Program-made: the position numbers and the translations under genes | In this document: piece by piece, positions 3,020 to 64,000 of the stretch | Layout of the letters: each line of letters opens with the position of its first letter | Numbering within the stretch: position 1 is the stretch's first letter | Assembly (NCBI GenBank): GCA_016748015.1 | Contig: JAAOMT010000518.1 | Span: 372,001-436,000, forward strand | From: Geosiphon pyriformis uo1 | Taxonomy: Eukaryota > Fungi > Glomeromycota | Reading direction: 5' to 3' | DNA: 64,000 nucleotides | The notes under the pieces: model-generated | Told to the model about the DNA's origin: nothing | What the model saw: the letters and a program-made list of their open reading frames with translations, nothing else | The model's database searches: none

Positions 3020-3686
3020 TGTTATAGTTAAAACTCATACTTTTTATTAATTATCACATGTATTAACCATTGATGTCATATAATTAGCCACCCTATTTTT
3101 AGATAATAATCATTGACCTGATCAATAATCTGACTATTGATCTGATTATTGACTTAGTCGTTGACTTGATTATTAATCATTTTTAATAGCTATATAAGCA
3201 ATAAATCTCTTAACTGTAAAAAAACATGTCAGAAATCAAGAAAATCAAATAAATAAAATAACAACTTTTATCTTAATTCTTTTCTTATCACTAATTTCTC
3301 TTTTCTTACCTTCAAGTATCCAAACATTTTGGAATAAAAAATTATTTGTTGATTATTTTTTACCCTTTTTCTGAAATGTGTAATTGTAGTATTTAAAGAC
3401 TATTAAATAAAATGTGACTAAAGAATATATCTAATACCTAATATTGAATTCTAAAAGTGCTAACATGAGACATAAAATTATATCAATGTGTGATTATTTG
3501 TTAATAGTATAGACTATTCCTTTACCTTCAGATTCTCTGGGTATTTTTTAAAAAGTATAATGACTGAGATATTTTATGAGACTGATCTCACATATTGAAT
3601 CCATACTTATTCAATTCACTCTTTGAAGTTGAATTCTCTTTAATTCTTTTCATTACCCTATAATTTTGTTTTCTTTTGCTATTCAT
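3020..3686 (+). repeat. LTR family B (solo LTR, main part); its last 29 bp lie at 10490-10518
   Basis: Starts TGTTATAG (3020); the far piece ends CTGTAACA (10518). 4-bp TSD ATAT at 3016-3019 and 10519-10522. Removing 3020-10522 restores the LINE frame (QTENI|KFFIAKT). Contains TATATAAG and AATAAA motifs and a 12-bp tandem array. Confidence 0.75.
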
Positions 3687-3926
3687 TGTTACTCATAGAA
3701 TATAAAAAGTATATTAGCACATAAATTAGCCAATTAAAAGTAGTCATAGTAAAATGTGGAATTCCAGGATTCCTCTCAAAGGAATTATAGGATTCCTGGT
3801 ATAAAGAATTGAAGAATTAAGAAATTTCAATTATGTATATATATTGGTAGCATTAGAAGTAGAAAAAGACAAACCTCTCAGTTTAGATTTGATCTAAGCA
3901 ATCTTCCACATCACAAATATTAATAA
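3687..3926 (+). repeat. 5' LTR of the family A element, truncated after 240 bp
   Basis: Aligns to 9759-9975 with 24 substitutions and one 23-bp indel; similarity stops at AATAA (3926). Confidence 0.9.
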
Positions 3927-4206
3927 GGAATTCTTATATCTCAATTTGTAATCAACAAATGTCATAAATTATATATTATAAAAGAAAGAAATTTACTAAA
4001 CCAGGATTATTTACCCATTCATAAATTATCAAATCATTAAATCCAAATATTATTAAAAAGATTTTGTTAATTAGGAATTTTTAACCTTATTTGTTTTAAA
4101 AATAATAAAAAATATGTTATAATAAAATATAATATGTGTATACACAACTAAATTAAAATCAGAACCAAAAATTTAAAAATACTAATAAGCTAAAAATATA
4201 TGTTTG

Positions 4207-5034
4207 CTAATAATCAGCATCTCTGAAATCTTGACCAGATAAGGTAATACCAGACAAAACATTCATACTACCATGTCCACTTCGATGACCTGCACCAGAA
4301 CCAGACATGCCCATATTTTGACCACTACCACCGTATTGATCATTTTGATTAACACCAGAACCAGGGAAACCACCTGAGAAAATCCTACCACTTTGCTGAC
4401 CACCATAGTTTAAACCTAAATGAAATGCTTCTTTAACTATTGGAGATTAATGTCCATGTTCAGACACATCTAAATTTTCCAGATTATTATATAGGGCCTT
4501 GTCATTGCCATGATCCGATCCATTACCACCTTGACTATCACTATTGCCACCACAACTAAGACCATATAGAAAGTCTGAATCTCAGCAATATGTTTGCTCA
4601 AATTTTACTCTATTATATATGAGATTCTTATCCAATAAAGCTTTTTTCAGATCTTCTATTATATGTTGGATGAATAATCTTTCATTACTACTACTCGAAA
4701 AAAAACTAACATAAGTCATTGAATGATCTGTTCTACTTATCAAATTAGTATTGTTATTCTCTCTAGAAGTCAATAAAGACCTAAGGCAAATCATAAGACT
4801 ACACAAAGGATTATCATTAAGGTTGACATTTAAAAAACCCCATGTAACTTGATGATTGATATTACATGAAAATGTAATTCAGCTTAACACCACCAATGTG
4901 TTGGTTTTAACTTGCTGAACTATTATGTCTGCATTTTGCAAACTGTTAACAAAGGTAACGAGATTATCAAGAGCACACTACTGTTTGTTATGGAATTGTA
5001 TTTGATTGTAAACTGATCTAATAACATAAGACAT
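4207..5034 (-). pseudogene. Decayed tobamovirus/virga-like (TMV-fold) coat-protein gene with a Gly/Ser-rich C-terminal extension; candidate endogenous viral element
   Basis: One frame of 276 codons from ATG 5034 to TAG 4207, with 4 internal stops each one transition from a sense codon: MSYVIRSVYNQIQFHNKQ*CALDNLVTFVNSLQNADIIVQQVKTNTLVVLS*ITF...NLNDNPLCSLMICLRSLLTSRE...IQHIIEDLKKALLDKNLIYNRVKFEQTYC*DSDF...GGQQSG..GGFPGSG..YGGSG. Order and spacing of motifs match TMV CP as I recall it. Confidence 0.6.
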
Positions 5035-5161
5035 TTTTAAAAAAAAATTTTTTGTTTGTTTATATAATCATTTGTAATGTGTATAAGATTTCGGGTTTTT
5101 ATGTTTATATGGTTATTTGTTTATTTGTTATATTTACCGATAATAAAATAATTTGTGATTT

Positions 5162-8100
5162 CAATATTGTAATGAGTATGATCTCATTTACAATCCACTG
5201 ATCTGCATAATCTACATAATCTCAGAAGAAGAAGAACCAATTAGCAGCTGCACATCGGAATTGGAATCAACTTTCAATCCCAATTTAAACTCTGACAACA
5301 ATGACAACAAAAACAATGGTTTTAGCTCTACTCAATATGGCATGGAAAATAATAGCAATTCAAACTTCGATTCAAACCCCAAAACATACATTGTGCTTCC
5401 TGATCTTTTCAAAAAACAGGAACTTAAATAGTATAGTGACAACAATGAAGGTATCATGCCAGAATGTACACATGATACAGATGCAAGATTTGATCTAAGG
5501 TATTCAGAAAAAGACGCCATCAAATTGAAACCACATTCATGCACCTGCATTGATCTCAAAATAGCACTAGAAATCCCAGCAACAACAATAGTTTAATTAG
5601 CATCTAGGAATAGTTTAGCAAAAAAGGGAATCAACATCAAAGGAAAAATAATTGATGCAGAATATGTAGAAAACATCATTGTAATGCTACAGAATAATTC
5701 TGAAAAGACCTATATCATAGAGCCAAATTAAAAGATAGCACAGACAATATTCCTACCTCTAGTAAAAATAGCTCAGTTAGTGTTAGTGGGAAACAGGAAA
5801 CAATTAAGAATTATAGCTAGAAGGATACAGGGTTTTGGATTCACAGATAGAATAGATGTACCAATTAATATGGCAAAGGAAGAAATTGTTGACAAAGGAG
5901 AAATTATTTCTACCTATCAACCAATTTCCATTCTATTATATGACCAGTACATGGTAGTTATAAAGAGAAAAGTAAAAGATCAAGTTTAGATTTTTGAGGC
6001 AGAAGCAACACTTTGTAAATTAAGAGAGATTGGATTAGTTAATCTATATATACCAGCCAAAAACCACAGTCACATCAAAATTCCCATTTACAACAACACG
6101 AAAAATGTCATCAAGATACCAGAAGGAACTACTATTGGATACTTAACCACCAAACTTGAAGACTAACTGCCAAACACCATTCCAAACTTTCTACAACTGT
6201 GTAGATATGTAAATATTACATTTCAAACCATATACAGATGAAAAAAATGTTATTTGCTCCAAACAGAACAATTGGAACAGATAAACTTGGGAAACTTAGA
6301 CTCATTCCAATGGATACAATTCAAAATGTTACTTAACAACTTCAATAACATCTTTGCCAGTGAAAACAAATTTGGTAGAACTGATATAATCTAGCATCAG
6401 ATCAAGACTGAAAATGCAATACTAATAAAACAAAGATCATACAAAGTACCACTAGCTAGCCATGAGATTATTTGTCAAAAAATCAACCAGATGCTTGACA
6501 ACAGACTAATTCAGCTATCAATAAGCTCATGATTATTACCAGTAGTACTAGTTCATAAGAAAAATAGAAAAATCTGCTTTTGTGTGGATTACTGGAAACT
6601 GAATGGAGTAACAAAAGAAAATAGTTATCCAACTCCAAAGATCCAAAAACTTTTTGATGCTTTTAGAAAAAAGAAATAATTCTCAACATTAGACTTAGAC
6701 AGTAGTTATTGGCAAGTAGCCATAAAACCAGAAAATAAAGAGAAAACAGCTTTTACAACTTGAAAAGGAAATTTCGAATTTAAAGTGATGCTATTTGGCT
6801 TAATGAATCCTCTGGCCACTTTCCAGTGACTTATGGAAATTGTTTATACTGGGCTACTATGAAAATCAGTAGTTATATACTTAGATAACACCAATGTGTT
6901 CTCAAAAACATTTGATGACCATCTGTATTATCTTTAACAAGTATTTAAAAGACTCAGACAAGCAGGATTAAAATTAAATACAAACAAATGCTTTTTTGGC
7001 AAAACTAAATTCAAGTTTTTGGGACATGTTGTGAGCAAAGACAGTATCAAAACAGATCCAGACAAAATTAAGATTGTTAAGAACTTTCTAGTACCAAATA
7101 ATCTCACAGAATTAAGAGCATTTTTGGAATTTGCTGGATATTACTGCCACTTTATTAAAAACTTTTCCAAAATAGCTTAACCACTATACTAACTCCAAAC
7201 AAAAAACACCAAATATGAGTAGACTGAAATCCAACAAAAAATCTTTGACACACTAAGAAGAAAACTTATTTAAGCTTTAGTATTAATCTATTTAGATCAC
7301 AATAAACCATTTATTATCACTACTGATACATCAGGCCAAGCATTAGGAGCAGTACTATCACAGAAAAGACTGAATGGAAGAGAATATCCAATAGCATATG
7401 CCAGTAGAAGCTTAAGTCTAGCAGAAAAGAACTATAAAACTCCAGCACTAGAACACTTAGCTATCTATTGGGCTGTCATCAAATAGAAAAAATACTTGAG
7501 TCAAAAGTTTGATGTGTATACTGATTACAAAGGATTGACTTCAATTCAGAAACAAGAATTTGGAGATGATTGTCATGCCAGATAAAAAATAGAACTTTTA
7601 CTATTTAATTATACAGTACATTACAAAAAAAGAAAAGAAAACAGAAATGCTAACGGATTGTCACAAATAAGACAAATCTAAAAACATTTCAACCCAAAAA
7701 TATAACAAAAAATGAATATACAAAAATATTAACAACTCCAATATTATATAAATACCAAATTGTTCAAGAAGAAATTATTTCAAAAGAAACAAAGAAACAT
7801 AAAACAACAATCAAAATATTTTATCAACCATCAAAATATACTTTACTGAAAGAACAAAAGAAATCTAGATCAACCAATCAGAGAAAGAGACAATATTATT
7901 TAACATGCACTCAGATCCAACAGCAGAACATTTTCATAAAAAAACAACCATGGAAAGAATTAAAAAAAGATACTATTGGCCATCAATGTATCTAAACATT
8001 ATTTAATATATTCAAAATTGTAATGCTTGTCAAAGAAAAGGTGGAACAAAACTCAGTAAACTATTAAGACTAATCAAAGTGAAACAACTATTTGATCATA

Positions 8101-9071
8101 TTAAAATTGACTTAGTTGGACCATTAACAATCATTAGCAGAAGCAACAGATATATTGCAGTAGCCATAGATTATTTCATAAAATGGCCAGAAGCAAAAGC
8201 CATTCAAAGAACAGATGCAGAATCTATTGCCAAATTCATTCATTAAGATTTAATTTGTCAACATAGATGTCCAAAAGAACTACTATTAGATCAAAGAACT
8301 CACTTTGTGAATAGAACATTGGCGGAATTAAGTCAAAGATTTGGAATAAAAAGACCATTATTATTCCCATATTATCCACAAACAAATGGGCTAGTTAAAA
8401 AGTTTAACAGAACATTGTGTGAAGCCATTGCCAAAATCAGCCAAAAAAACTAGGACAAATAAGATTTGATTATACCATCAGTATTATTTGCTTATTGGAC
8501 AATAAAGCAAGACACTACACAAACAACACTATTTGAATTAGTATACAGTAGAACAGCAACATTACTAGTTAAGATAGAAGTCAAAACATATTCAACAGAA
8601 CCAATAACAAAAGAAAATTTTCAAAGAACATTGTTAAGAAAAACATATAACTTAATGGAAACACTAGAAAACACATGGCAAAAAGCAGCTGATAACATCC
8701 AAAAGTTACAAGAAAAACAAAAAAAAAGACACAATAACCAACTATCAGAAAAACCAGTTGAATTCAAGATTGAAGACAAAGTACTTTTACATCATACTAA
8801 AGTGAAAAAACAATGGAGTGGAAAATTTGATTCCAAATGGGACAGACTATTTCACATAAAAAAAATTCTTGGAAATAGAACTTATAAATTAAGGTGGAAC
8901 AACAAAATCTTAACCAAGGCAGCACATAGTGATTAACTGAAACAATATCACCATAAAGCATTATCATCTACCAATAATATTCCACAATTAGGAGTACAGA
9001 AAATATTAGTTAAACCAGATGAGATTTTATAAGATCAAGAACCAATTATAATTATTGAACCAAACATGTAA
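5162..9071 (+). pseudogene. Decayed Gypsy pol: dUTPase (~5450-5850), RT (~6400-7050), RNase H (~7300-7660), integrase (~7900-8940)
   Basis: RT: CFCVDYWKLN, FSTLDLDSSYWQV, MLFGLMN, YLDN at 6878 (decayed YLDD), KFLGHVV. RNase H: TTDTSGQALGAVLSQ, IAYASRSL. Integrase: H-SDPTAE-H...C-NA-C zinc finger, IDLVGPL, LLDQRTHF, PQTNGLVKKFNRT, WDRLF (GPF-like). Confidence 0.92.
5450..5850 (+). pseudogene. Retroelement-encoded trimeric dUTPase domain (decayed)
   Basis: All five dUTPase motifs in order and in the RT frame: DARFDL (5480), ASRNSLA, GKIIDAEYVENI, KIAQTIF, RRIQGFGFTD. Confidence 0.88.
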
Positions 9072-9131
9072 AATTTAACAACCAAAAGAGTATATAAAGA
9101 CATAATATATGTGACAAAAGACAGCAGAAAA

Positions 9132-9738
9132 ATGGAAATTACTGACAGCATTTACTCATTAGCACAACAACTGTTTCAACTAATCCAACAACAAGAGATG
9201 GAAATTACAATCAACTAACAAACTATCAGATACACAAACACCAGAAAAAGACCACGAGATAAAATACAGAGGAAAATAGAAAACACTGTAGACAAAATAA
9301 TCACAAAAGTGAAATTGACAATAAAAACACAATCAAAAGTTACCCAATATCAAGAGTTGACTATAAAAACTTGGAATTGGTGGATACAACAATTTTCAAG
9401 AAACTTTTGTTACTTTTATTTGGGACAACACTTGAACATTCAGGACTTGTATATGGATAAAACAAAACGATTATTTGATACAACAATACTGGAACAACTG
9501 GAACAATTTGACCACACAAGCAAGAGCCATTTATCAGCTACACACTGGATTTCAAAATCGACCAGAAATCTTACTTAATCCAGAAATAAACTCTATTATC
9601 ATTAACCAAATGGGAAAAATAACCAACACTCAATTTGAAGAATTACAGAACAAGATAGCACAAGTAATTCTTGAAAAAAAAGTTCAAGAAATACTTAAAG
9701 ACAGAAAATTAGAATTAGGAGATCTCAATGGAGCTTAA
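9132..9738 (+). pseudogene. Accessory ORF3 of the Gypsy element (unknown function, ~200 aa; one internal stop and one frameshift)
   Basis: ATG 9132 is in frame with ORF 9309-9578; shifts into ORF 9475-9738, which ends 4 bp before the PPT. Confidence 0.55.
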
Positions 9739-9742
9739 TATT

Positions 9743-9758
9743 AAAAAGGAGAGAATAA
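9743..9758 (+). promoter_or_regulatory. Polypurine tract (plus-strand primer)
   Basis: AAAAAGGAGAGAATAA directly 5' of the TGTTAC start of the 3' LTR. Confidence 0.85.
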
Positions 9759-10489
9759 TGTTACTCATAGAATATAGGAAGTATATTAGCACATAAATTA
9801 GCCAATTAAAAGTAACTGTAGTAAAATATGGAATTCCAGAATTCTTGGTGTGAAAAATTGAGGAATTGAGGAATCTCAATTATGTATATATATTGGTAGC
9901 ATTAGAAATAAAAAAAGACAGACCTTTTAGTTTAGATTTGATTTAAGCAACCTTCCACATCACAAATATCAATAAATAATTATTCACTATCTTAATCCCC
10001 TTTTTACTCTCAATGCTTCATGTTGATAGTAATTGATACTTAAATCACACTGAAACAATAGCTCTTGATCATGGCTATTAACAGGATACTAACATGCAAA
10101 TTGCCTTGGCTTATTTTTTTTATTTTTTTTTATTTTCTTTTCTTGCTTTATTTTTTTTATTAATTTGATTAAAAAAATATACATACAGAAGTACTGATAT
10201 CAGAATATAGCACAGATAAAAGACCCAAGAATAAGAGTAGACACTCGAAATTAAGAATATCTTACCAGGAAAATTACTGGCCATTATGCTGAGAAAGAAA
10301 TTGACAAAACTGTGGTTTCGGAAAGCTACAGATAAAATTATAAATTAAATCTCTATCTATTATACAAAGAACTCAACCAAAACCTTTAAACAAACAACAT
10401 TTTTAGATATCTCCAAGAATTTCAATCAATTAAGCACCAAGTTATGAGTTTGTTATTTGATTTGAGACCCCAAATAATTATCTGTAACA
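9759..10489 (+). repeat. 3' LTR of the family A element (~730 bp)
   Basis: TGTTAC...GTAACA inverted ends; homologous along its length to the solo LTR at 52960-53766. Confidence 0.88.
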
Positions 10490-10518
10490 CTATTAGCTTG
10501 TTATTCCAATCTGTAACA

Positions 10519-12870
10519 ATATTTTCAGTTTGACTAAAATATATACTTGTCAATGCTTTAACATAAATTCCTAAAATTACTACCAAAAAATTATTATTAA
10601 ACAAAAGACAAACTAATAAAAAATAACTTTGAATTTTTAACATTTTATATATATGACAAACCAACTTATTATCTATTATTATTGTTATATTTAAATTCAA
10701 ATAGCCAGAATTTAAACTAAACACAAAAACTTTTAAATCAAAAAACTTGTTTTTTATTTAAGACTTAATCTGTTCTTTTAGTTTCATATTAATAATAATA
10801 AAAACCAAATTACCAGAATTTTTATGTTATCTAATAATATTTTTTTATTTAGCCAAATTGTTTATCTTTCTAATATTACATATTGCAAACTTCCAAACAT
10901 AATCAGTTATTAAGATAAAAAATGTACCAAAAAACTTAAGCCAAAGCACAATTGATTTAATTTTGCCAAAACTGAATCAATAAAAATTTTAAAAGCAATT
11001 ATTTTCTATTTCAAGTTACTTATTTTATTAATTAAAACTTTAAAGCTATTTATATTTAAATCTGAAGTCTTAATTTTGCTGTTAAAAAAAAAAAAAAAAC
11101 AATATCTGTAAGTTATCTAAAATCATATTTAAATTCAAACTTAAAATTAATAACACAAAAACAATTAAAAAAAAAATTAAAAAACAAAAACCAAAAACAC
11201 CAAATTTGTATTGTTTAACTTTTATATAATATTAAATACTTGGTTAGCCAAGAATTTTAAAGAATACTTCAAAGAAATCAGACAAGTATTAATAAACAAA
11301 CCATTTTGTAAGACAAAAAGAATCTTATCAAAATACAGAGCACCAAAAAAAAACAATTCAAAACCAAAACCAAAGTAAGTATTATTAAGAACAGAAGCCA
11401 ATAAAATTATTTAGGTTTATAATTTGTTATTAAAAACAGCAGAATATGAGATAAAAACACTTTTTTTAATATATAACTTGGCCAATTAAAAACAATCTAT
11501 ATCTAAAGCAAATTTTTTATCTATTTTCAAAAACAGAAAAGTAAATGCACTTGATTTATTATAATTTAGAACAAAATATTTAAAACATCTACATTTTTTA
11601 CAACAAATTAAACTTAGTCTAATCCAAAAAAGTTTCATATTATCAAAAATTAGTTCTGTATAAAAGATTAATTCTAATTTTTTTTTGATCCAAAACTAAT
11701 TACAACACAATAAACTTTATTGTTAGCTTCAAATAATTAATTAACTATATATGTTTCATATTAACTTTTTCTAATAAAACATTTAAATTATAAGCAGTTG
11801 TTTTTACAAACAGCATAAATAAAAACACTCTAAACTGATTTCTTAATATTTAAATATTATGATTTTTTATAGTTTTGGCAATATGTATTAAATTTTTTCC
11901 AATTAAAAATAACTACTTTGATGTTAACTAATTAGCTTGACTTAATTTGACAAATTTTATTACAATTTTCTGTTATAGCTTAATAAATTATAATTGAATT
12001 GACACTATTTAACCAAATTTAAAGAAAACTATAATAATTATTTTTTTTAGCATATCTATGAAAATTTTTTTAATAATTATAGCTCAATCTGAACAAAATT
12101 TTTGTTTTTTGAGATTATTGTTTACTTTAATGCTTTTTTTTAGTCAATAATACAACTTTTTTTATGTTCTTTTTTGATGTAATATAAATCTGATAATTTT
12201 TTTAAATTTTAAAAAGATAATAATCTTCACAAAACAATTTATTTTTAAATTTTTTTTTTTAATAATCTGTATTTTTGTTATTACTAATTTATGTTTAACT
12301 GCCAATAAATTAATATTTAAAGCAAAAGTTTTTTTAAAAACTATTTTAACTTGAGTTTTCACTATTTTAAAGTTAATTTACTTTTTGTTTAGAAAAATAT
12401 AAAAAAGAAAAAGAAGAGATTTTTTATTTTTATTTATGTTATAATTAATTACATCAATAGAAGAACTATATTTCAAACTAATATTAATTTTCTTAGCTTT
12501 AAAGATTATTATTAATATATTACCAATATTATTATTACTGAATTTACTATTTATATCTAAATATATATTACTTTTAAAATCAGATTTAACCAAAAAGATA
12601 TTTTTATTATTATTAAAGTGCTTAATATTACTTATAAAAACTTTTTTTTTCTAAAAGAAAGAATTTTCAACTGGACCATGAAAAGTTTTCTTAAGCACTT
12701 TTTTCTTAAACATAATGCTATTTGAAACAGTTTCCAAATTTACCATAAAAAAATTATTTGCTTAAAAAAATATTAAGAGTAATATTACAAAAAAAACAAA
12801 ACAAAAACTTCTTTATCAAAAAAATATTCTTTGAAAAATTTGAATGTAAAAAAAAAAGAAGTTTTTATAT
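10519..12870 (-). mobile_element. LINE copy 1, 5' part (5'UTR, ORF1 from ATG ~12746, start of the ORF2 APE domain)
   Basis: ORF1 'MVNLETVSNSIMFKKKVLKKTFHGPV...'. APE start 'WKFAICNIRKINNLAK'. Continues in frame into 1-3019 once the nested LTRs are removed. Confidence 0.8.
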
Positions 12871-39300: not shown

Positions 39301-42300
39301 TTTTAATACTAAGAAATTGTTACAATAGAAAATATTAAACTTGCTATAAGCAAATAAGATACAATCTAACAAAATTTTAAACAGAATTTTCTTAGCTGTT
39401 TTAATTAAAGTTATGAATTATGTGTTTATTAAAATGCTATCTCAATTATATAGTTTGAAGATTATTAAAACCTATGATTTTTTCTAAAGAACTGAAATAT
39501 TACCAAGAATTAGACAAGTATTTAATAGATTTAATAGACAATTTACTATTATATTATCACAATATTTCTAAAGTTTATTAGTTATGTTAAACAAACCAGT
39601 AGCTTTACTATTGAGCAGACTACTGATTACTGAAATCAAATTCTTTAAGCTGATGACTTTTATTATACTAAAAAAGATGTCTTTATTTATATATACTAAG
39701 AGCATATATTAATCAATCCATAAATTAAGCAAAGCTAAAAGAATTTTGCACTTTTTTGTCCAATTTTTTATAATCATATCAACTTTAAGCTTTACTTTAT
39801 TTGGCTCCAAAACTAATTTTTTTTCAATTACTAAATAGTCTAAAACTATCTTTCAAAATAGTTGTTTTAAGACACTTCTAATTATGCTATCTTTATTAAA
39901 ACTGAAATTTTTTAGGTGTTTTTCAATTATGTTTCTAATAGCTGTATTTTTAGCTGTCTTAAATTTATAGTATTTGGATTTGTAATAACTATTTTTAATT
40001 ATTAATAAATATTTAATTATGTCTACAGAATTTGCATTATTATAAATTAAGCTGTTAATTTCAGAAAATCTTATATTATTAACAGATGATTATATCTTAA
40101 TGAAATGCTTAAATTCTAGCTTATTGCTTGAGCTCAATATCTTAGACAACATAGAAACCAATAATTCCAGCTTGTAAAATTTTAAAGACTATTTGTTTCT
40201 TAAACAATTAAATTTATTATATTAATATCTAAAAAACATTTTATTAGCTATATTTACTACTATTCTATTTAAAACTTTTTATATTGTATTTAAGTTTTAA
40301 AGATTTTTAGCTTTTGAAAATTCATATTATATTATTAAAAGCTTAACAGAAAAACAATTCTTGAATCTTATTTATTTGGCATTATCTGCATTTTTTGTTT
40401 TAAATTTCCAGTAATTTTTATTAGTCTGTTTACAAGCAATGTTTAAATAAATGTCTAATAAGTCTTTTAAACCAATTTAAATTGAAACTGCCTTATAATT
40501 AGTGTTAAAAAAATTGGAAACAGAACTAACATTACAAATTATGATAACTAATAACAGATTTTTACCCAAAAAAATATAATTAATAATTTTTTCAACCCCT
40601 TTTAAATTGTGCTAAATAGAACATTTAACCAAAAAGTATTTATCTAAAGAATTTACTAAACTCATATTTGGACACTTGCTAAAACTTGCACATTTTTTAG
40701 AACTATTTTTATTAAAGTTATTATCTAAGATTATAAATAAATTAGAACTAGTTACCTTAAAAATAAAAGAGTTAATATTAGAAGTTTGCATAAATCTAGT
40801 TTCAATTGATGCTCCAATATACAAATCCAAAACCACAACTAACAATTTGCTCTTGAACAGAAAACAAACTAAAATTATTTAACCAGAAATTTTTTCCACT
40901 TTTGTAATATAACAAGCCAAAAAATTGTTCATAATAATGGCTATATCAGTTCTAAAAAAGCTATTTTCCAGGCTAAATATGAAAATTTAGACTCCACTAA
41001 ATTTGTTTATTATCTATAGCTTAATATTAGACTTAAGTTTTATTTTAATTATAATAAATATTATGTTTTCAGAATTTATATGCCATTAAATAATGTCTTT
41101 TTGTTTTGTCAAATTGTTTATATCTTTGATATTACATATTGCTATTTTTCAAATAAACTTATTCATTAAGATGAAAGATATATTAAAAAACTTAAATCAA
41201 CATACAACTGATCTAATTTCTTCAAAATTGAGCCAATAAAAATTTTAAGAGCCACTATTTTCAACTTTAGGCTGTCTAATTTGATGATTAAAACTTTAGA
41301 ACTACTTATACTTAATACTAAAACTTTAGAATTTGCCAAAAGAAAAAGAGAGAATAATGCTTATAAGCTATCTAAAATTATGTTTAAAACCAAGTTCAAA
41401 TCTGTAATTATTGAATTAACTAAAATAAGAGCAAGAAAAGACAAAACCAATAGTATTAAGTCTATATTACTAAGTCTATACACAATATTAGACACCTAGT
41501 TAGCCAAGAACTCCAAAGAGCATTTCAAAAAAGCCAACTAATTACCAATTACAAACATATTTTGAAAATTAAAGATCTTATTGCCAGAAAGTGAAGTATT
41601 AAAAAAAGAAAGCCCAAAGAAAAAAACAAAACAAATATTAATAAAAACTGTTATTAGAGACATTATTTAAGTCCAAGACTTACCACTAAAAGCAGCAAAT
41701 TAAAAAATAAGCATTATTTTTTCTTGTATAAAGGTAAACAAATTGAAAATAATTCTAATTTAAAACAAATCTTTTAAAAACTTTTTTTTGAACCAGAGCA
41801 AAAAAACCAGAAAAGTTGTATTTAAAAAAAAATATTCAAAATACTCATATTTTTTACATCAAATTAAATCTAATTTAGTCTAAAAAAGCTTAATATCATT
41901 CAAAATAGACTTTGTACAAAAAACAGATTCTAGTTTCTTATTAAATTTAAAACTAATTATAATATAGTAAATCTTATTATTAGTGTCAAATAATTAATTG
42001 ATAATACAAGTTTTTTTACTAATTTTTTTTAATAAATTACTAAAATTATAAACAGTTATTCTTATAAAAAGAGTAAACAAAAGTGTCTTGAATTGATTCT
42101 TAAACATCCAAATATTACAATCTTCTATAGCTTTTATCATAAATACTGAATTTTTTCCAATTAAAAATAATTATTTTGATAACAACAAATTAGTTTAACT
42201 TGATTTAGTAAATTCTATTATAGTCTTTTATCACAGTTTAATCAGTTGTAAATAAATTAACACAATTTAATTAAACTTAAAAACTGTGACAATGATTATC

Positions 42301-47369: not shown

Positions 47370-49670
47370 GATAGCAAATAAGCTAAAAAAAACTTTTTGT
47401 CTTCTTAATTTTATGAACAAAGAGTAGAAAAGTTGCAACTAATATCTTTCCTAAAATATCTAATAAAATTTCAACCAGAAGAGTTCTTTCTGTAGTAGAA
47501 ACAACTAGATAAAACGTTTTAGAAGTCTTTCCTTTACCTAATAATCATAAAAAGCTGCTTTTAGTAACTATTGAAGCAACTTTTTCATCTTTGGCTGGTT
47601 TTTTATCAGTCAAAGTTTTCTCAAAAAGACACATTTGAATTAGTTTCAGTATTGCCTCCATCTCTACTAAGAGCCCAAAAGTGTTTAATAATAGATTAAT
47701 TAATAAGCTGGTATTTTTTTCCATAGCTTCAACATCTGGTGCTGCTAGCACCTCTTCTTCAAAAAAAATGGTCAAAAAAACCAAAAGTTCAGAAAAGTGG
47801 GGGCAGTTACTTGCCTCTGCTATTATTATACTGAACCCTTTTGTGGTTCTAACTGAGATTTTAGGTGAGATTTTTACTGTATTATCCAGCATATTTTTCA
47901 AGATAGACCAAGATTAATCATAGACTGTGTTGCCTAATATAGTATTTTCTAACAGATCTTTGCCAGTTCTGAAAGTAAAACAACTATCTCCTGTTGGATT
48001 ACTTGTTCTTGAAAACTAGACTGATCAGATGGAAACTGATTCATTTTCTCTTCTGGTTTCTGGTGCTGTCACTAGTAGTGCTTGGGAAACTATTACTAGT
48101 TGTCAAAAGTTTACTGGATGGGTGGTCTTCTTTCTGGTATCTGGTACTACTTTTAAGATCAAATTGGCTTATATTAAGACTGTTTTTCAGTCTGTACATG
48201 GTTTTTTGGGTGCAAAATTTGTTTCTAAAGACAATATAAAGCTTTTTTGTGTGAAGTTTGTTTCTTAAAGTTTTCTAAATGCTGTATTTTTGGTTGAGCT
48301 TACAAGTTCTGTTCACATTATTACTCTTAAAATTATCAAGTCTTTGGTGGTTTCTGAGGCTGGCTCCCCTTCTGATGTTATTGCATTGTGTGATGTGTCT
48401 TTGGGTGTATTTGTTGCTAACATTAAGATAGCTCTTGGTGTCTTTGGTGAAATTTCTTATATTTAGTCAAGACCTATTGGTATTTGGCAATATGTTGTTG
48501 TTTACTTTAAAAATTTGAATGCTGTTACATTTGCTTTTAATTACTGGTTAGTTTTGGTGGGCAAAAATAATATTAAAATTCTTCCTTTAGTAAATCAAAA
48601 TAAAACTATTCTGTTTTGTGATAGGTTTAAGGCCAAGTTGGTTAATCTCCTCTCTGGCTGCATAGCTTTTGAAATTAGTGATATGATTTCTCAAGTTAAT
48701 AGTTAGACATGTTTCATTCTCGGTTCTCTTAAGTCTGGTTATTGTTCTCAGTTTGCTCTGATTACATTTGGTTCTTAGGTTGATTTGGATGCTGTAGTAC
48801 TAAAAACTAGTACACTAAAAAAATACCATATCTGGTGGGAAACCTCTGGTTGCTGGTGTTGTTTTTGGTGTTAAGAGATAGGCCACTTGGCTATGGATTA
48901 TAAGGTTGCTCCATCTCTTTCTTCTAAGACTCCCAAGGTGTTTAAACTACATTTTGTTGGTTCTTTGTCTTATGTAAAGACATCTGTTCCCCTTGTTCTT
49001 TCTGAATTTCCTCTTTTGGTGACTTCTGTTTCTTTTGTGGCTGTTGAAGATTCTTTGGTGTCTTTTTGGCTGGCATTTCTGGAATCTAATTTGGTCAAGC
49101 TTTCTGTTTTAGTTGAATCTATTATTAAGTCTATTGGCTCTATAGTCAAAGTTTTTGAACAATTTATTAATAATGATCTGGTTTTAAGTTCTGCTTTTGG
49201 CCTCAGAGTCAATGAAGTTTTGGTTCACATAAATAGTTTTAGTAGAGCTGTTGGTAAGTTGGAGTGAAAAGTGGTTGCTCTGAAAGTTGAGTGTGGTTTT
49301 AAGAATGTTGATATATTTGGTTCTTATATAAGTTTGTTATCTTTTGATAATGATATGTTTTCTAATTTGATGTCTCTTTGAGAACATGAATCTGCTGCTG
49401 TAAAAACTGATGTCTTTAAAACAGCTGAGTGGTTGGTTGGTTTGGTTAATAATAGTGTTACATTATTTGAGATTGTTCAAAGAATGTTTTTTTTGGGTAA
49501 ATTTTCTTCTGATGCATTAATATAGTATAGCCTAAACTGGCTCAAGTAGCTGGTTACATGTAGTAAGCACATAAATTATATTTAGCCCTAGATCACTTAG
49601 TTTGGTCCTAATTTTTAGATGGTGTTTGGACCATACTCATTAAATTCATAATAATAATAATAAAAAAATA
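47370..49670 (+). mobile_element. ORF1-only non-autonomous retroelement (Half-LINE-like) with a CCHC knuckle and a LINE-type 3' tail plus (TAA)n
   Basis: ORFs 47681, 48029, 48515 and 48887 share one frame ending at TAG 49523-49525. Knuckle 'CCFWC*EIGHLAMDY'. The tail starting at the stop matches the LINE 3' ends. Confidence 0.7.
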
Positions 49671-49799: not shown

Positions 49800-52700
49800 T
49801 TTAAAGATTTATAAAATATGTAAATTTCTTTAAAATAATTAAAAACAAAAAAGTACATTTTTTTAAAAAAAAGTTTTTTGTTTTTGTTTTTTCTTATAAT
49901 ATTGTTTTCAATATTTTTTAAATAAATAATTTTTTTGTAATAAACCTAAAAATTACTTCAAGTAGTAGTATATTTAAAAAAAAAATACTTAAAAGAGTTT
50001 CTATAAATAATATTAAACACTTTAATAATAATAATAATAATTTTTTTAGTCAAATTAGGTCTTAAAAATAATATGTATTCAAATATAGATAGTAAATTCA
50101 GTAATAATAAAGATAATAATATCTCAATAAACGCTAATAGTGGTTTTTTTTGGCTCAGCAGTAATAATTTCTAAAGCTAAGAAGTTAATACTGGTTTAAA
50201 ATATAGTTGTCTTATTAATATAATTGACTATAATATAGATAAAAATAAAAAACTTTTTTTTTTCTTCTTAATATTTTTTTGAACAAAAATAATTGACTTC
50301 AGAATAATAAAAATTTAAGTTGAAAAAAAGTTTTGCTTTAAATATTAACTTATTAACAATTAAGAATAAATCAATAACAATAAAAATACAAATTATTAAA
50401 AACATTTTTTCAAAAGTAAATAATTTTAAAAAAACTATTACTCTCTCAAAGTTTGAAAATTATTAGATCTATGTTTATATTTAAAGAAAACATGAAAAAA
50501 ATTATATTATTAACTAACAAAAATAGTATTATAGTAAACAATAATTTAAAAAAAAATTTTATAAATATGTTAAAATATAATTATTATTATAGTATTTGAA
50601 TATAAACAAATAACATTAATCTAATTATAATTAATTAGACTATAACAGAAAATTGTAATAAAGTTTGCTAAATTAAGTTAAACTAATGCTTTAATTATTA
50701 ATTAATTATTATTAATTATGAAAAATTTAATACATATTATTAAAGCTATAAACAATTATAATATTCAGATATTAAGAAATTATTTTAAGACATTTCTGTT
50801 TATTTTATCTATAAAAACAACTGTTTATAATTTGGATACTTTGGTAAAAGAGATTGGTAAAAAAACTTGTATAATTAACCACTTTTATAAAATTAATAAT
50901 AAAGTTTATTGTGTTATAATTGGTTTTGTTTTAGAAAAAAATTTGGAATTGGCTTTTTACATGGAGCTAATTTTTAATAATATAAAAATTTTTTGGACTA
51001 AGTTGAAATTAATGTATTGTAAAAAGTATAGACACTTTGATTATTTAATTTTTAAATATAATATCTTTAGTATAACTGTTTTTTTTTTAAGAAAAGTTTA
51101 TATAAAGTTGATTTTAGATAAAAATCATATTTAATTAACTTATTTTTATGTTAAAAAAAAGGTTTTTATTTTACAATTGATGGCTTTTGATAATTAATTT
51201 TGAACATAAGTAGTTTTTTTAACAAATATTAATAAGAATATTTATTATGATTTTTATATTAGTTTTCTATTTTTTAGTGTTTTTTTTTCTGTTATTAAAA
51301 ATTTGCTATTAAGTTTAGTTATTTATATTAATACTTATCTGACATCTTTAGAAAAGTCTTTAAAACTTTTGATTAATTAAGTATTTAGTATTTTTTGTAG
51401 ATTAAATAGTCTAATCTTGAGTTTTTACATATTTATAGTTTCTTTTTTTCTTTTAGTAAATGTTAATTTAAATTAAATATAGTTATAAACAGCTTAAGTA
51501 AGGTTTTTTTTATGTAATAAATGGTTTAAAATCTTTTGTTCTAAGTATAAGTAGTATAAAAATTCTTATTACTAAGATAAAAAGTATAAAATCCAAGATA
51601 ATTATATTAAAAATTTCTATAAATTCTATTTTAGTAAGTTAAATTAGTTGTATACTAATTTAAATTCCATAATATTATTTTTATTTTAATAAATAAGTTA
51701 GTTTAAAAGTTTGCTGCATGTAATATTAAGGGTATAAACATTTTAGCTAAACAAAAAAACATTGTTTATTGATATTTGGATTTTGATAATATGATTTTAA
51801 TTATTATAAAAACAAAATTAAGATTTAGTATTAGACTATAGACTATAAATATGTTTAATAAAATTTATATCTTTATATTTGGTATAGATAAAAGATATTT
51901 TGATGTTAATATAGTTATTATTTTAAATAATTCTTTGGCTTATTATATTTCAAAAGTAGAAAAATTTCAGATTAGATTATTTTAATTTATTTTTATTTAA
52001 AAATAAGTTTTTTATCATGATTTTGGATTTGTATATTAGTGTTTTTGCTAAAACCAAATTTAATTAAGCTGTAAAAGTCAACTTTTTTATTGCTAATACA
52101 ATAAATTCTAGTCTTTTTGTGGTTTTAAATAGAAATTTCAAAATAAATAAATCTAAAAAAAGCATAAATTTCAGATTTTGTTTAGATTTGGATTTGGTTA
52201 ATTTATTTAGTAAGCATTTTTTGGTTAAAGTTTTTACTTAAAACAACTCTAAAAAGATTGAAAAGATTATTAATTTTGTTTTTATAAACAAAAATTTGTT
52301 ATTTGCAATTACATATTATAAAATCAACTTTATATCTAAATTTTTTAACACTAATTACAAGGTAGTTGTAATTTTAATTAAATTAAGTGGCCTTTTAAAT
52401 ATTTGTTTAAATAATATTTGCAAACAAATAAATAAGAATTATTGAAAATTTATAATTAAAAATACAGATAATATTAAGTAATTATACTTTAAAAAGTGCT
52501 GTTTTGTTAAGTTTTTAATTACAATAATAAGTTTGTAAATATAAAATATTGTTAAAATTTAGATATAATATAAAAGGCATTAAAAAAAGTTGTAATAAAC
52601 TCTGCTAATATAATGTTTTTTAAAAATTGGTTTAATATGTTTAAGTATTTAAGAAACAAGCAATTATTAAAGTTCTTTGAATTAAAATTACTGGTTTTCA

Positions 52701-55700
52701 AAATGGTAAAAAAATTAGATTTGAATAACAAGCTTAAGTTTAATTGTTTTTTTTATACTTGATTAGTTATAAATAATAAAAAGACCTTTAAAATTAACAA
52801 ATTAATACAAAATAGTGTAATTGTTATAAATATTATTAAATATTTGTTATTAATTAAGAAAAAATACAAAAAATTTAACTATTTTAAATCTAAAGTAGCT
52901 GAAGATATATATATCAAAAAAATAATCAAAAAGTGTATAAATAATTTTTGCTTTAATAATATTACTCATAAAAATTAAGAATTATAATAGTAGATAAAAT
53001 AGCTAATCAAAAATAGACATAATAAAAAGAGAAATTCTAAAATTTCTTTTAAGAAATTGCAGAATTTCAGAATTCCAAAATTCTTTTTAAAGAAATTGAA
53101 AGATTTTAAAAAATTTTATATAAAATAATTTATGTATATATAGTAAGAGTATTAGAAGCAAAAAAAGTAATAAAGTTAATTCAATAGAATTTAATAGAGT
53201 TTAAAACAATAATACTTTTTTCTTCAAAAGATAGTTTTCTATAACTTAAAGTAAAATTACATAAAAATATTAATAAAATTATTCATTATTATCCAATCCA
53301 TATTATTATTACTTGATTAAAAAAATATTAAATCACTTTATACTATCAACACTCTATATTAATAAAATTTAATACTTAATTATACTAGACTAATAGCTTT
53401 TGATTATGGCTATTAATAAAATACTAATTTTTTATTTTTTTTTTTATTTTTTTTTATTTTTTTTTGTTTTATTTTTTTGTTGTTTACTAATCAATTAAAA
53501 AAATTAAGTGCTAAGTATTTGACATTAAGAATGGTTTAATAAAAGACTTAAGAACAAAAATAGCTTACCAGAAGGGCATAATTACCAAAATAAACCAGCC
53601 AATATGCTGAAAAAAATCATCAATTGAATTTCTGTTTATTATACAAAGAACTCAACCAAAACTTTTAAACTCCAAAATCTTCAGAAATTACCAATATTCT
53701 TAGTTATTAAGCACTAAGTTACAGATTTATTATTTGTTTTAATATTCCAAATAATCATCTGTAACAATAAAAAGCACATAATAAGAAGTATTTTAAAAAA
53801 ACTATTTTATAAAATAGTATTGAATTATTTAGTAGTAGAAGAAAAATTGGTTTTAGAACCAAAGAAAGTAAGATCTAAAGTTAATAAGATCATAAAAAAA
53901 TAGATAAAAAAATATAAAGTGTTTTAAATGCTATCTGGTTTATAGTTTTATTAATATGTATTTTTGAATTAAATAAAAAATAATGTTTTTTTTAGTTTAA
54001 TAAATAAAATTAATATAAAAAATTTGGTTATAGCAATTAAAGTTTTGTTTAATAGCAAAGTTATTGGTTTATTTAACATATTTAATAAGCTTTAAAAACA
54101 TTGTAACAAAGTAGTTATACAGTATTTTTTGAATTTATTAAATTCTTGTCTGATTTTTAATAATGTTTTAGTTTTGTAAAAAAGAACATAAATTTTAATA
54201 ATTCTTAAGTCTTATGAGTAAGATAATATTTTAATAAATACTTATTTAATTGCACTAATTAAGATGACCAGAAAAATTTTGTTTAAAATTCTGTTAGATA
54301 AAATTTTTTTTATGTATAGTAAATTTAATGTTCTCTATAAAAATAATTTTTTAATTTTAAAGAGTACTTTAATTTAATTTTCTGTGTTTGTTGTTAACTT
54401 AATAATAGAAAATATTTTAAAAAAAAACTAAAAATTTTGGCTCGTATTATAAAATATATGCAAAATTTATAATTTAGTTGGATGGTTCTACTTAAAGACT
54501 AATTTAAGGTGTATTAAAATGTATGACTAGTTTATAAATTTTTTTGAAAACATATACATAAATAGAATTAAAAAGATAATAACAGATTTTGGGTTTTTAA
54601 ATAAGTACAAATACATAATAGACTGAATTAAGGCAAAATTTTTTCATCACTTCTTTAAAGAATTTTTTTGTTAACAAAAAATATATTTAAATTTAGTTTT
54701 ATTAAAGTATATTTAGATATTAAGTTTTTTTCAAATATAGTTTTCAAGAAAATTTTATTAGATAAATTGTTTTTATATTTAATTTTGGTAATTTTACAAC
54801 TTATAGTTGACTATCAAATACAGTTTAGTTTTGTGTTTAAGAATATTAAAAGTAAAATATTATAATAAAAAAAAGCTCAAATTTAAAGCCAATTTGCTTA
54901 AAAATTTTTTTAATAAGACTTTATATTACTTATTTTTATATGAATTGAAGTTTTTCAAGCAAATATAAATAGCAAACAAGATGGCTTAGTAGTTAAGTTC
55001 TTTAATACAATAGAAATTTTTGGCTATTTATTTGAGCACTATTTTTTGAATTTGCAAATTATGAACTAAAGACTTATAAATTTTTTACAGTTTTTAATCA
55101 AGTTAAGAATCAACTTTATTAATAATTATTTGGCAAATATTGTAAAAATATTTTTAAATAATAAAATTTTTTTGGCAATAACTTATTTAATGTTTTTTAT
55201 TTTTTGAAGCACTTAAATGTTGCTTTTGAAAACAAGTTGGTAAACAAGTATAAAGTAATTTTGAATTATTATTGAAAAAAATAAATCTTAAAGACTTAGT
55301 ACTATTATGATTTATTAAGATTTTAGTTTATAAAACTAAATTTTTTAATAATTTTAATAAGATTGCTTTAATTTTTGATTGCTCAAATTTTTTTCTGTTT
55401 GAAAAATTTTTTAAATATTTGTAAATATTTATATAAGTTATAGATAAGAGTAATTAATATATATACTAATAATTTATTAAAAAGCTTAAATATTAAGAAA
55501 ATAACAAATAGAATAATTGTTTATTTTTTTAATATTAAAATAAATATAAATGTTAAAGTTTATGATTTGTTATTTTCTATAATATTTTAATTACAAATAA
55601 TTATGTTATTATTAAAATATGTTCTTTTTTTTTGCTTAGTAGTTTTATATATAAACAACTAAACTATTATAAATATATATATTTTGAAACTTAAATTTTA

Positions 55701-60069: not shown

Positions 60070-63000
60070 ATGACAATTAAAGGTAGACAACTTTTTGTGG
60101 GAAATGTAAGCTTGTGTGCAATTTCTATTCTTCGCCTGGTTTCACTTGTGTTATTGAAAAATCCAGTCTTCTAATTATCATTGGTTTCCTTTAAAAAACA
60201 AATAGCTTCCTTTTGTTGGTGAATATACAATCGCCTTTGATTTTGGATTTTTTACTAGATTCTCAGCTTACTCTGCCTTTATATTTATATTTTCTATTTT
60301 CTAAGTTGGATGGCAGGATTTAAAGGTATTTATTAGTTCTGTGAGACTTTAATAATCTGATTTATAATCAAAGTAAAATTGCTTTTGAGAACACTTCTGA
60401 TTTATTCGAAATATTCGTTCCGTTGCTTAGGATTTATTTAGATCAGCTGGCAGTGTACAACGTGCAAACATTATGCTAGGTCGTGACGGACGATCGAAAG
60501 GACATGGGATTGTGCTTTACGCCACCGTGGCTGATGCTCAAAAAGCTATGGGTAAAATTTAATATACCTCATCTCGAGTTTTGAAATCTCTGGCCATATA
60601 ATAATCCGAGAATTTTTTCAAATTTTTTTTTTACTTTGAAATTTTAAGCAACATTTGATGGGTATGAATGGCATGGCCGAAGATTAGAAGTTCGTGAGGT
60701 ATTAAAACACAATTTTGTCTTAAGTTTATATAATTGCTTTTATATAATAATCTTCATCTCCTTACATTCTAGGATCGAAGTGCGATGGACTTCCCTCCTC
60801 CTCCCCCACGTAGTGAAGGTGCAAACTCTTTGATGAAAAATGAGGTAGATTTAATGTAACTTTGAAAAGCCTTACAAATTTTGTGAACCTAGATTTCTAA
60901 CATTGAATCTCCATTAGATTGAGAACGAAAATCTTTCCTCTTCAAATGGTACAATAAACACATCATCATCATCAATAGTAAATGATATTAGTGTTAATGG
61001 TAATTCTTCAACGCAAGCCTCTTCCCCAATCGAATTTCCATCCGAGAATATCTCTATTGGTAACGGAACTTCAAACGGTACTTATACCTTGGATGAATCC
61101 TCAACATCCACAATTACCAACACAAACGCAAGTAGTATGACCACTGTTGCTGGGTTAAATGGAGTCGGGGGCAATATACAGAGACAGCTTTTTGTCGGAA
61201 ATGTGAGCACACTCTCTATAAATACATACTTAATTGGAAAGTTTGCGATCAATCCATTTATAATCTTCAATTTAAAATGATTGAAAATAATCGTTTATTC
61301 TTTTCATAATAATTTTAGCTACCTTTTCGCGTACGGTGGCAAGATTTGAAGGATTTGTTTCGAAAGGCTGGAACTGTAATACGTGCAGATGTTGCTATGG
61401 GTTACGATAATCGATCTAAAGGTCATGGGACAGTTTTGTTTGCGACCCTAGAAGATGCGAAAAACGCGATTGGTAACGTAAATTTTCTGAAGCTGTGACT
61501 TGATGATTTATAATTTTTTCCGGAAGATTATTGAAAACTTGAGGTTTTTTAAGCCATGTTTCATAATTATAATTGGCAAAGTCGGACTTTGGAAGTACGT
61601 GAAGATCGAGGCTTTGTGGATCCTAATAATGGAACTGGAAGCAACTTTTTCCCAGAAATAACTCGTCGCGTTCATGAACAAGTCTTGAACCAACATTCAC
61701 AAAATCCATTCGCTCCAGGAGCTCCAATGATCGCACCTGGTATATATTATGGTGTAAGTCAAAAATGTTAATCATTTGTAATCAAATGTCATGAATCTTT
61801 TACACTATATAAGCGAGTTATGTTCTCAATCCAAGCCCAGGGGAATACAAACACCTGCACCTAATTACGCTGGACGTTTACTTTTCGTGGGAAATGTGAG
61901 ATTATTTATTGATATATATTTGCTGGGATAATTATTATTTCCTTACATGGCTCATCGATAAATCATTTTCCTTTATATCAAAGCTACCATTCAATTGCCA
62001 ATGGCAAGATCTCAAAGATCTTTTTCGCAATGCTGGTAATATAATTCGCGCAGATGTATCCACAAATTACGATGGAAGGAGCCGTGGGTTTGGTACAGTG
62101 CTGTTTGCCACACCAGAAGATGCTCGTAACGCCGTCGGTAAATATTTTCCGAAGGATTTGTAAACTTTTATTTTCTTAAAAACATGTTTTAAAGAAATGT
62201 TTTGTATGTTATTTAGTAATGTATAATAATCGTGAGTATCAAGGCAGAACGCTACGCGTTCATTTTGATAAATTCGCGTTACCTTCAATCCCACCTCTTC
62301 CTCATCACCCTGGCCCACATATACATCTGGTACAACCGGTACATCCACATCATCGACCTCCTTTGCCTCTAATTCCTCCTCACAATTTTCATATGGGATT
62401 GGCTCCGTCAATGCATCACCCTCATTTTTTACCATCTGCTCATATGGGACCGTTTTCTCCGCCTTTGACTACTCCGCCACCATTAACAAGTCCTCCTCCC
62501 TATCCTGCCACGGCATACAACATATCATTAAACCATTTAGCTTCTACTGTAGCAAATGCTTCAACAAATGGAAGCACACCATTTCAACAAATGACAATGG
62601 TATCCTCTGCGCCTTCACACGGCAGTAACATTCAACACTCAGCAAGTAATAGTACGTCTCAAACTCTTAATCCATCGCAAGATCAATCACTGTCGGCTCC
62701 TTCGTTAGTACAATTCTCTAGTTTTGGTCCTATTGGAAAAAATCATTCCGTTCAAACAGTCAACAATTCATCATCAACATCAAGTTTTGGTTCCGTAAGC
62801 GCATTCCCTAACCCTATTTCTGGAGTAAACAACAACGGGAATTCTAGTACAGGAAACAATAATGCTGAGAATGCTTTAGGTGTTTCTAAAAACGAAAGTC
62901 CTATAATCCAATCTTTAATATCTATGGCTGGTTTACATGTTAATCCAAATCCTCCACAACCACTTTTTTATCATCATCATCATCATCCACATCTCTCACA

Positions 63001-63670
63001 TCACCCGCACCATCGCCCTCCAGTGGTATCCTCAGCTGCCTATCATCACGCTCATGCTTTTGCTGCCGTACATCACCATCAACAACAACAGCAACATCAA
63101 CATCAACATCATCATGCACTCCAACATCAACACCCTCATCCACAAACTAACCATACTCATCATCCACATCATCATCATCATCATCATCATCATCACCACC
63201 CGGGTGCGATTGGTAGTGGAATCGTAGGAGGTAATCATCTTCATCAGCATCTCCCTCATAATATTCCTTATAATTCACAAGTTTCATCGAACTCATCAGT
63301 ATCAGTAGCCGGAGCAAATGGATTACATAATAATTCTTCATCAACTGGGATTACAGATGCGGAAAAAGGAAAAAATGGGAGCAGCTTAGGAACAACCGCT
63401 TCAGTACCCAACGACACCGGAAACTCAAATAACAACTCAAGTGGCAATAATAGCAACAATACTTCGATCTCTTCACCACCACTGATTGTTCCTTCGGCAG
63501 CTATATGGAATAATAATGCTACTAATATGTTAAGTGGAACCTCGAACAGTGTCATTAATGGAGGAATCAGCACAAGCGGTGTGATGAGTATTGAAATGGC
63601 CACTCTGGCTGCGATTGGACCAGTAATTCCTACTGCTGTTCCACAATCGGTTTTCGTGAGAAATATCTAA
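60070..63670 (+). CDS. RNA-binding protein with three RRMs (Gbp2/Hrb1/hnRNP-M-like) and a long His/Pro/Ser/Asn-rich tail (multi-exon)
   Basis: Three repeats of 'LFVGNLPF..WQDLKDLFR.AG...RA.......GRS(K/R)G(H/F)G.V.(Y/F)AT..DA..A' followed by 'GR.L.V' ends; GT-AG junctions keep the frame. Confidence 0.88.
62970..63200 (+). repeat. CAT/CAA trinucleotide low-complexity tract encoding poly-His/Gln
   Basis: HHHHHH, QQQQQHQHQHHH and HHHHHHHHHH runs in ORF 62219-63670. Confidence 0.9.
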
Positions 63671-64000
63671 TATTTGAGGAGGAAATGAGGATTGATTATT
63701 TGAGACTCGGAATTGAAGCAAATTTCTTTAATTTTCGATTTTTCCATAATCCCTTTTTTGTATATAAATAAATGAAAATTTGTCGTAAATTTAGAGCAAT
63801 TGGGGTATGGGTGAGGAACAGACAGAATCAACGGTCACGGGCATCCATAACCGTTCAAGAATGGGTCAGATGGGGTGTAAATAGTCGTATCAGTCAGGTT
63901 TGCGAGATGAACACTATATAGTATAAAATTTTCTGGTTTTAGTTATCCAATTTTTTCATTTGTCCTTTAAAAAATAGTGAAAAATAACAATAAAACTTTC

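Follow-up and report, generated by a model that had tools for sequence, protein, structure and literature searches.

What is a gene resembling the coat protein of TMV doing, antisense, inside an LTR retrotransposon of the fungus Geosiphon pyriformis, and how did it come to be there? The locus lies in a stretch of 64,000 nucleotides of contig JAAOMT010000518.1, which was analysed as a whole and is referred to below as the window. A sequence-only reading had described here a frameshift-free minus-strand ORF with four stops, of which the first ~150 codons track TMV coat protein, and both parts of this description stood up. The minus-strand frame at 5034–4207 runs from ATG to TAG with zero frameshifts; its 275 codons, not counting the end stop, include four internal stops at codons 19, 52, 151 and 196. 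Approximately 19 stops are expected by chance (19.5 ± 4.2 in dinucleotide shuffles), and the remaining five frames over the same region contain 16–41 each. A chance open frame was ruled out, as four or fewer stops occurred in 0 of 3000 dinucleotide shuffles of the region. Codons 1–150 taken separately are also more open than chance (equally few stops in 2 of 3000 shuffles).

The first 150 codons (4585..5034, minus strand; stops at 4978–4980 and 4879–4881) form a TMV-type coat protein domain. With the stops read as X, residues 20–149 matched positions 17–141 of the Pfam profile PF00721, TMV_coat (125 of 146 positions, E 7.7e-6), and no other Pfam family was listed for the frame at E up to 10. 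This profile comparison, which the sequence-only reading had suggested after repair of the stops, gave 26.8 bits against a curated cut-off of 26.5, a thin margin that is backed by the scores of two relatives described below (52.5 and 36.1 bits). A stop-free piece of 98 codons matched PF00721 on its own at E 1.1e-4. Compared with the coat protein of the tobamovirus CGMMV, the window gene keeps the late Y-x-R-x-x-F-E motif and, of the DTR motif, the basic but not the acidic residue. It differs from the PF00721 coat proteins of Virgaviridae and Benyviridae in being broken and in having a Gly/Ser-rich tail in frame.

A search of 1,835,955,588 representatives without a word index returned exactly two matches: P0003, of 155 aa, at E 2.3e-9, and P0004, of 182 aa, at E 4.1e-4. 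Both are unnamed environmental singletons and intact members of PF00721 (E 9e-14 and 1e-8, respectively), 36% identical to one another and 24–28% identical to the coat domain; against P0003, no gap interrupts the 144 aligned residues (24% identical, 55% similar). The ATG of the window frame coincides with the start motif of both relatives. Length and conserved columns are likewise held in common with them, whereas the Gly/Ser-rich tail is absent from the two intact proteins. Against a profile of P0003 and P0004 the coat domain scored 70.7 bits, compared with at most 9.2 for shuffled sequences (1915 scored of 2000) and 1.7 for the reversed sequence, a score that is partly circular, as both relatives were found with the coat domain itself. 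Possibly, the two represent an undescribed virus group; the ESM Atlas gave no usable match for either. A protein search with a word index yielded no matches with the whole frame, and only P0003 and P0004 with a three-row profile (coat domain, P0003, P0004). Scanning of a viral contig collection produced one chance match (24 residues in contig L001, with unrelated frames), and scanning of a metagenome contig collection none. No named virus protein matched the coat frame at E 0.001 or better, from which we infer that the donor belonged to a distant, unclassified lineage.

Among solved structures, the coat frame as a single sequence had no match and P0003 alone found one coat protein (E 0.089). 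The top two structures for the three-row profile were tobamovirus-type coat proteins (E 0.086 and 0.097, below significance), of which that of CGMMV (E 0.097, not significant alone) aligned in the same register. Structure models built from the three-row alignment reached a mean pLDDT of only 43.9 and 52.0, and neither Foldseek nor VIA-align found for them a significant match to any structure, the models being too poor to test the fold. The weak rows of these searches included five furo- or pomovirus coat or readthrough proteins among the best 27 viral rows (E 0.45–1.5), and one low-confidence model had at rank 10 (E 2.0) the chain 4gqh, which we take to be TMV coat protein. The absence of TMV-family chains among 50 structural matches listed is, with models of such low confidence, no evidence against a coat fold. 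By homology of sequence, then, the segment holds a broken homologue of TMV-type coat proteins. The earlier label 'tobamovirus-like' is right as to this homology, but not as to closeness, as the nearest proteins are the two environmental ones.

Beyond codon 151 the frame continues into a Gly/Ser/Asn-rich tail of 124 codons (4207..4581, minus strand; internal stop at 4447–4449), with 22% Gly, 14% Ser and a GC content by codon position of 0.55/0.44/0.18. The tail had no match in Pfam and belongs to no known family; it is nevertheless more open than chance, with as few stops in only 13 of 3000 shuffles. The stop at codon 151 (4582..4584, minus strand) may be a break, or else the coat protein may naturally have ended here, possibly at a leaky stop with the tail as its readthrough part, since the C-termini of P0003 and P0004 lie 1–2 residues past the equivalent position. 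In comparison with the coat-readthrough genes of furo-, pomo- and benyviruses, the frame stays open behind the stop, but the tail has only 124 codons. We favour a break, because a conserved residue is kept at this position in both relatives and because the context of the stop is not known to fit any readthrough signal.

The element around the gene has the LTRs, the polypurine tract and the order reverse transcriptase–RNase H–integrase of a Ty3/Gypsy LTR retrotransposon. It begins with a 5' LTR cut short (3687..3926, plus strand), which retains approximately one third of the 731-nt LTR, counted from its start, with patchy likeness extending to ~3946, so that the remnant is ~240–260 nt long. Decayed pol follows at 5153..7510 (plus strand; dUTPase, reverse transcriptase and RNase H, PF00692, PF00078 and PF17919; 18 stops in 784 codons), then a decayed integrase region at 7890..9068 (plus strand; PF17921 and PF00665; 6 stops in 393 codons) and a broken extra reading frame at 9130..9740 (plus strand), which has open stretches and no Pfam match and is common to many copies of the family. 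The dUTPase of this element family, at 5430–5810 (plus strand), is placed between protease and reverse transcriptase. The polypurine tract, AAAAAGGAGAGAA (9743..9755, plus strand), stands three bases before a complete 3' LTR of 731 nt (TGTTAC...GTAACA; 9759..10489, plus strand), both ends of which match a solo LTR of the same family at 52960–53766 (plus strand). This solo LTR is more diverged (70–82% in pieces) and has a perfect 4-bp duplication, ATAA; the family therefore makes 4-bp target duplications. At the element itself the likely duplication reads TCAT on the left (3683..3686) and CTAT on the right (10490..10493), two transitions apart with 2 of 4 bases matching. Outer LTR ends are retained on both sides. 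The gene thus does lie, as had been proposed from the sequence, antisense within an LTR retrotransposon; the opposite strand carries dUTPase–reverse transcriptase–RNase H–integrase between two LTRs.

The element had inserted into an older high-copy repeat (~3228–3686 and 10490–10518), which shares its terminal ATCTGTAACA with the LTR. Another copy of this older repeat, a contig of the X2 run aligned to 3512–3682 with 28 differences in 171 letters, runs on directly into sequence like that from 10490 onward (by eye, 18 of 23 letters agree), so the unit 3687–10489 looks like one insertion. Comparison of the flanks found no second LTR pair in them. Just outside, at 10553–10996, begins the first of three copies of a decayed repeat that are 66–70% alike (the others at 40809–41252 and 51678–52038), and at 47548–49264 broken frames of higher GC amid AT-rich DNA, with no Pfam match, are possibly another decayed mobile element. 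Ordinary fungal genes were recognised by Pfam at 14900–35100 and 61900–63700, and encode a Vts1-like RNA-binding protein, an IF-2-like factor, a calcineurin-like phosphatase, an ion channel, an inositol phosphatase-like protein with a beta-propeller and an RRM protein.

A piece of pol of 90 residues adjoining the coat gene had 94 matches, all 94 of them G. pyriformis proteins (48–81% identical), in support of the early-diverging fungal host that had been suspected from the letters. The coat gene is a virus-like gene in host chromosomal DNA, set within a host LTR element and with intron-split fungal housekeeping genes from ~14.9 kb; a virus-like gene in host DNA with host flanks is what defines a non-retroviral endogenous viral element. 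What the element lost can be read from its relatives. Pol at 5153 resumes in the middle of the polyprotein: in the family protein P0089, gag lies at residues 266–393 and protease at 599–688, and the match to the window starts only at residue 822 (5159). Seven of eight long family proteins tested match the window, none of them upstream of 5150. Without a full 5' LTR, primer site, gag and protease, the copy in the window is a defective chimera.

The foreign segment measures ~1.2 kb, roughly from 3927/3946 to 5152/5158, and in coding sense comprises a 118-nt leader, the ORF and a 260–280-nt trailer. Short patches of likeness between segment and element are found at both junctions. The leader (5035..5152, minus strand; 16% GC, A/C-rich in coding sense) and the trailer (3927..4206, minus strand; 17% GC) equal host intergenic DNA in AT-richness. 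The predicted fold of the trailer was worse than 200 of 200 shuffles, so that no stable fold is present (the 3' end may be cut or decayed). No Rfam family was found in the segment and no tRNA gene in the window. Nor were other viral genes seen in the window: the profile of P0003 and P0004 matched the coat locus only, 34 selected frames contained no other viral family, and an alpha-like replicase or movement gene was found neither in the segment nor among those frames. P0003 and P0004 sit on contigs of 1131 and 1124 nt, close in size to the segment, a likeness that is weak evidence because such collections mostly yield short contigs.

The AT-rich leader and trailer would also suit a retrocopy of a host mRNA, that is, of a coat gene domesticated earlier by the fungus, with its Gly-rich tail and host-type untranslated parts, and then captured by the element. 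The tail missing from P0003 and P0004 agrees with this, and the parts of PMC6520822 considered here describe domesticated TMV-coat genes in Schizophora flies. We judge such an origin improbable, however, since no poly(A) is seen at the 3' junction of the segment, the sequencing run analysed contains no other copy that is at least 80% identical, and no parent gene is apparent: neither G. pyriformis nor any other fungus contributed a protein to the coat-gene matches, although the collection searched includes the G. pyriformis proteome.

Copy number was judged from one sequencing run, possibly the source of the assembly itself, in which copies of at least 80% identity are seen. Over 3500–10200, 62,972 contigs align, yet positions 4160–5009 are covered by just one of them (3897–5188, depth 97.5), which has no differing letters, includes the leader and reaches ~30–50 letters past the junctions. 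On the LTR and pol flanks there are many variant contigs, with a summed depth of 1e4–4e5 that is not to be taken as a copy number. In other copies of the element ordinary LTR continues after 3926 and ordinary pol precedes 5159, from which it follows that the foreign segment stands in place of the remaining 5' LTR together with primer site, gag and protease.

These counts bear on two further explanations. The sequence-only reading had offered, as one of its alternatives, a capsid-like cargo of the retroelement family, and a cargo gene of an element subfamily, perhaps substituting for gag, would indeed occupy the position that the coat gene has; older copies below 80% identity would also escape detection. 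Against this, the gene is antisense, the primer site and protease are gone with it, only one contig carries it while family copies are normal at both junctions, and the 94 family proteins have no meaningful match to the coat profile (best 10.2 bits). We therefore consider cargo very improbable. Hardly to be expected, too, is an error of assembly, or contaminating sequence fused to a repeat, even if the segment was found in one run only, possibly that of the assembly, and its junctions lie within a very high-copy repeat. A single contig spans LTR, segment and pol at a depth resembling that of other long contigs (72–114), the coat gene is decayed like the element, and an RNA virus is not expected in a DNA run, where the type of the run is our guess. 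The other alternative offered earlier, an endogenised virga-like virus gene, does fit.

Decay of the gene resembles that of its surroundings. Of 217 aligned columns in the LTR pair, 193 are identical, and all 24 differences are transitions, accompanied by a 23-nt indel (distance 0.125 K2P). Stops number 4 in the 275 codons of the coat gene, against 24 in the 1177 codons of pol plus integrase (Fisher p 0.63). CpG observed/expected is 0.23 in the coat gene, 0.08 in pol and 0.04 in integrase, compared with 0.67–0.80 in three host exons; the element family was probably CpG-poor already before the insertion. The coat gene was probably intact at capture and has been decaying for about as long as the element.

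We propose that the locus is a broken, single-copy coat gene that a Ty3/Gypsy reverse transcriptase, switching template, took from the RNA of an as yet undescribed fungal virus, and that was then integrated and left to decay, a reading to which we assign a probability of roughly 0.6. The steps, drawn in part from general retroelement biology, may have been as follows. Plus-sense viral RNA would have been packed into a particle of the element, where plus-strand DNA, begun at the polypurine tract, would have left the LTR at about base 240–260 and moved onto the viral RNA, copying it from a point near the 3' end and finishing at the 5' end. Copying in this direction would account for the antisense orientation of the gene and for the layout of leader, ORF and trailer. 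The DNA strand would then have gone back to the element's strand within pol, where the sequences are alike over short patches, and integrase would have inserted the chimera, both outer ends present, with a 4-bp duplication. An alternative jump, in which minus-strand synthesis switched onto viral minus-strand RNA, would give the same product. Able to integrate but, lacking primer site and gag, unable to move again, the chimera would have stayed single and decayed together with the element.

Several points weigh against the proposed reading: the target duplication agrees at only 2 of 4 bases, the LTR pair differs by the 23-nt indel, no second viral gene accompanies the coat gene, its leader and trailer resemble host intergenic DNA, and the single copy is known from one run. 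Moreover, repair of a DNA break at a later time would leave a scar hardly distinguishable from that of template switching, and the two are not firmly told apart here. In a repair event, viral cDNA would have been patched into a break of the already integrated element, with deletion of ~3 kb or more. The local resemblance of segment and element at each junction suits this equally well, and the milder CpG loss of the coat gene compared with pol and integrase might suggest a later arrival, although in a family that was probably CpG-poor before insertion this difference loses its force. Viral fragments can also integrate without LTR sequence in Aedes, as described in parts of PMC8048955. The equal stop density of coat gene and element speaks against late repair, as does the deletion, which starts inside the 5' LTR and takes the primer site. 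Strand transfer happens at the primer site. On balance we think repair an unlikely origin, if a credible one, and prefer capture by template switching during reverse transcription.

Such capture has precedent. Non-retroviral endogenous viral elements fused to LTR retrotransposons are known from Aedes, where they are put down to reverse transcription and recombination in the particle of the element (parts of PMC8048955). As in the window, viral sequence is there joined to Ty3/Gypsy-type sequence; unlike the window, the Aedes hybrids concern another host kingdom and another virus group, whereas in the fungus the element is kept over its whole span, with both outer ends, and shows what was replaced. 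The nearest counterpart of the gene itself is eTCPL, the endogenous tobamovirus-coat-like gene domesticated in Schizophora flies. Like the window gene, it encodes a TMV-type coat protein in the nucleus of a eukaryote, is single-copy and was detected by profile only, but in flies the gene is ancient and has been conserved in synteny from species to species, while ours is a decaying one-off within a fungal retroelement; the portions of PMC6520822 consulted contain no fungal case.

A viral donor is plausible, as Virgaviridae-related viruses are reported from the AM fungi Rhizophagus irregularis and Paraglomus brasilianum, where the supplement table, contrary to the main text, has P. brasilianum as negative; a tymo-like virus of G. 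pyriformis and endogenous viral replicase genes in Mucoromycota are also recorded (all from parts of PMC7482067). Tobamo-like viruses and viviviruses of fungi have Virgaviridae-related or Martellivirales replicases, but in the portions of PMC12090730 and PMC12169780 used here their coats are reported as flexivirus- or potyvirus-like, of the flexuous type, in contrast to the TMV-type gene of the window. Endogenised RNA-virus genes, TMV-coat genes in flies and virus–LTR hybrids are thus already known kinds. The present locus is real, and we regard it as a one-time endogenous viral element that goes beyond an ordinary pseudogene but falls short of the capsid-carrying element family imagined earlier; its host lineage, coat type and anatomy of capture were not found described. 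Full-text searches, several of them broad, in the main texts of mostly open-access papers brought up no report of such a coat gene in the genome of a fungus.

Being a single dead copy, the locus is unlikely to serve any function today, and it likely gives rise to no coat protein. More tentatively, and with real doubt on our part, the segment could be the near-complete fossil of an RNA (a genome segment or a subgenomic message) of undescribed, TMV-coated, rod-shaped viruses infecting the Glomeromycotina lineage, with P0003 and P0004 as living members. Lying antisense behind an LTR promoter, it could have given heritable antiviral small RNAs, with the surviving piece of LTR as the putative driver of antisense transcription; transposons in R. 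irregularis give rise to small RNAs, according to 10.1101/2021.03.30.436303.

Unlike metatranscriptomes, the locus preserves the record of the host in nuclear DNA, and it is an unusually complete scar of the capture of RNA-virus sequence by an LTR element in a fungus. If our reading is true, a virus with a TMV-type coat replicated within a fungus of the arbuscular mycorrhizal lineage, and the gene would be a fossil sign of rod-shaped-virus infection in these fungi. It would also provide a candidate host group for the orphan coat proteins P0003 and P0004, and would bear on the question of whether rod-shaped plant viruses passed via root symbionts.
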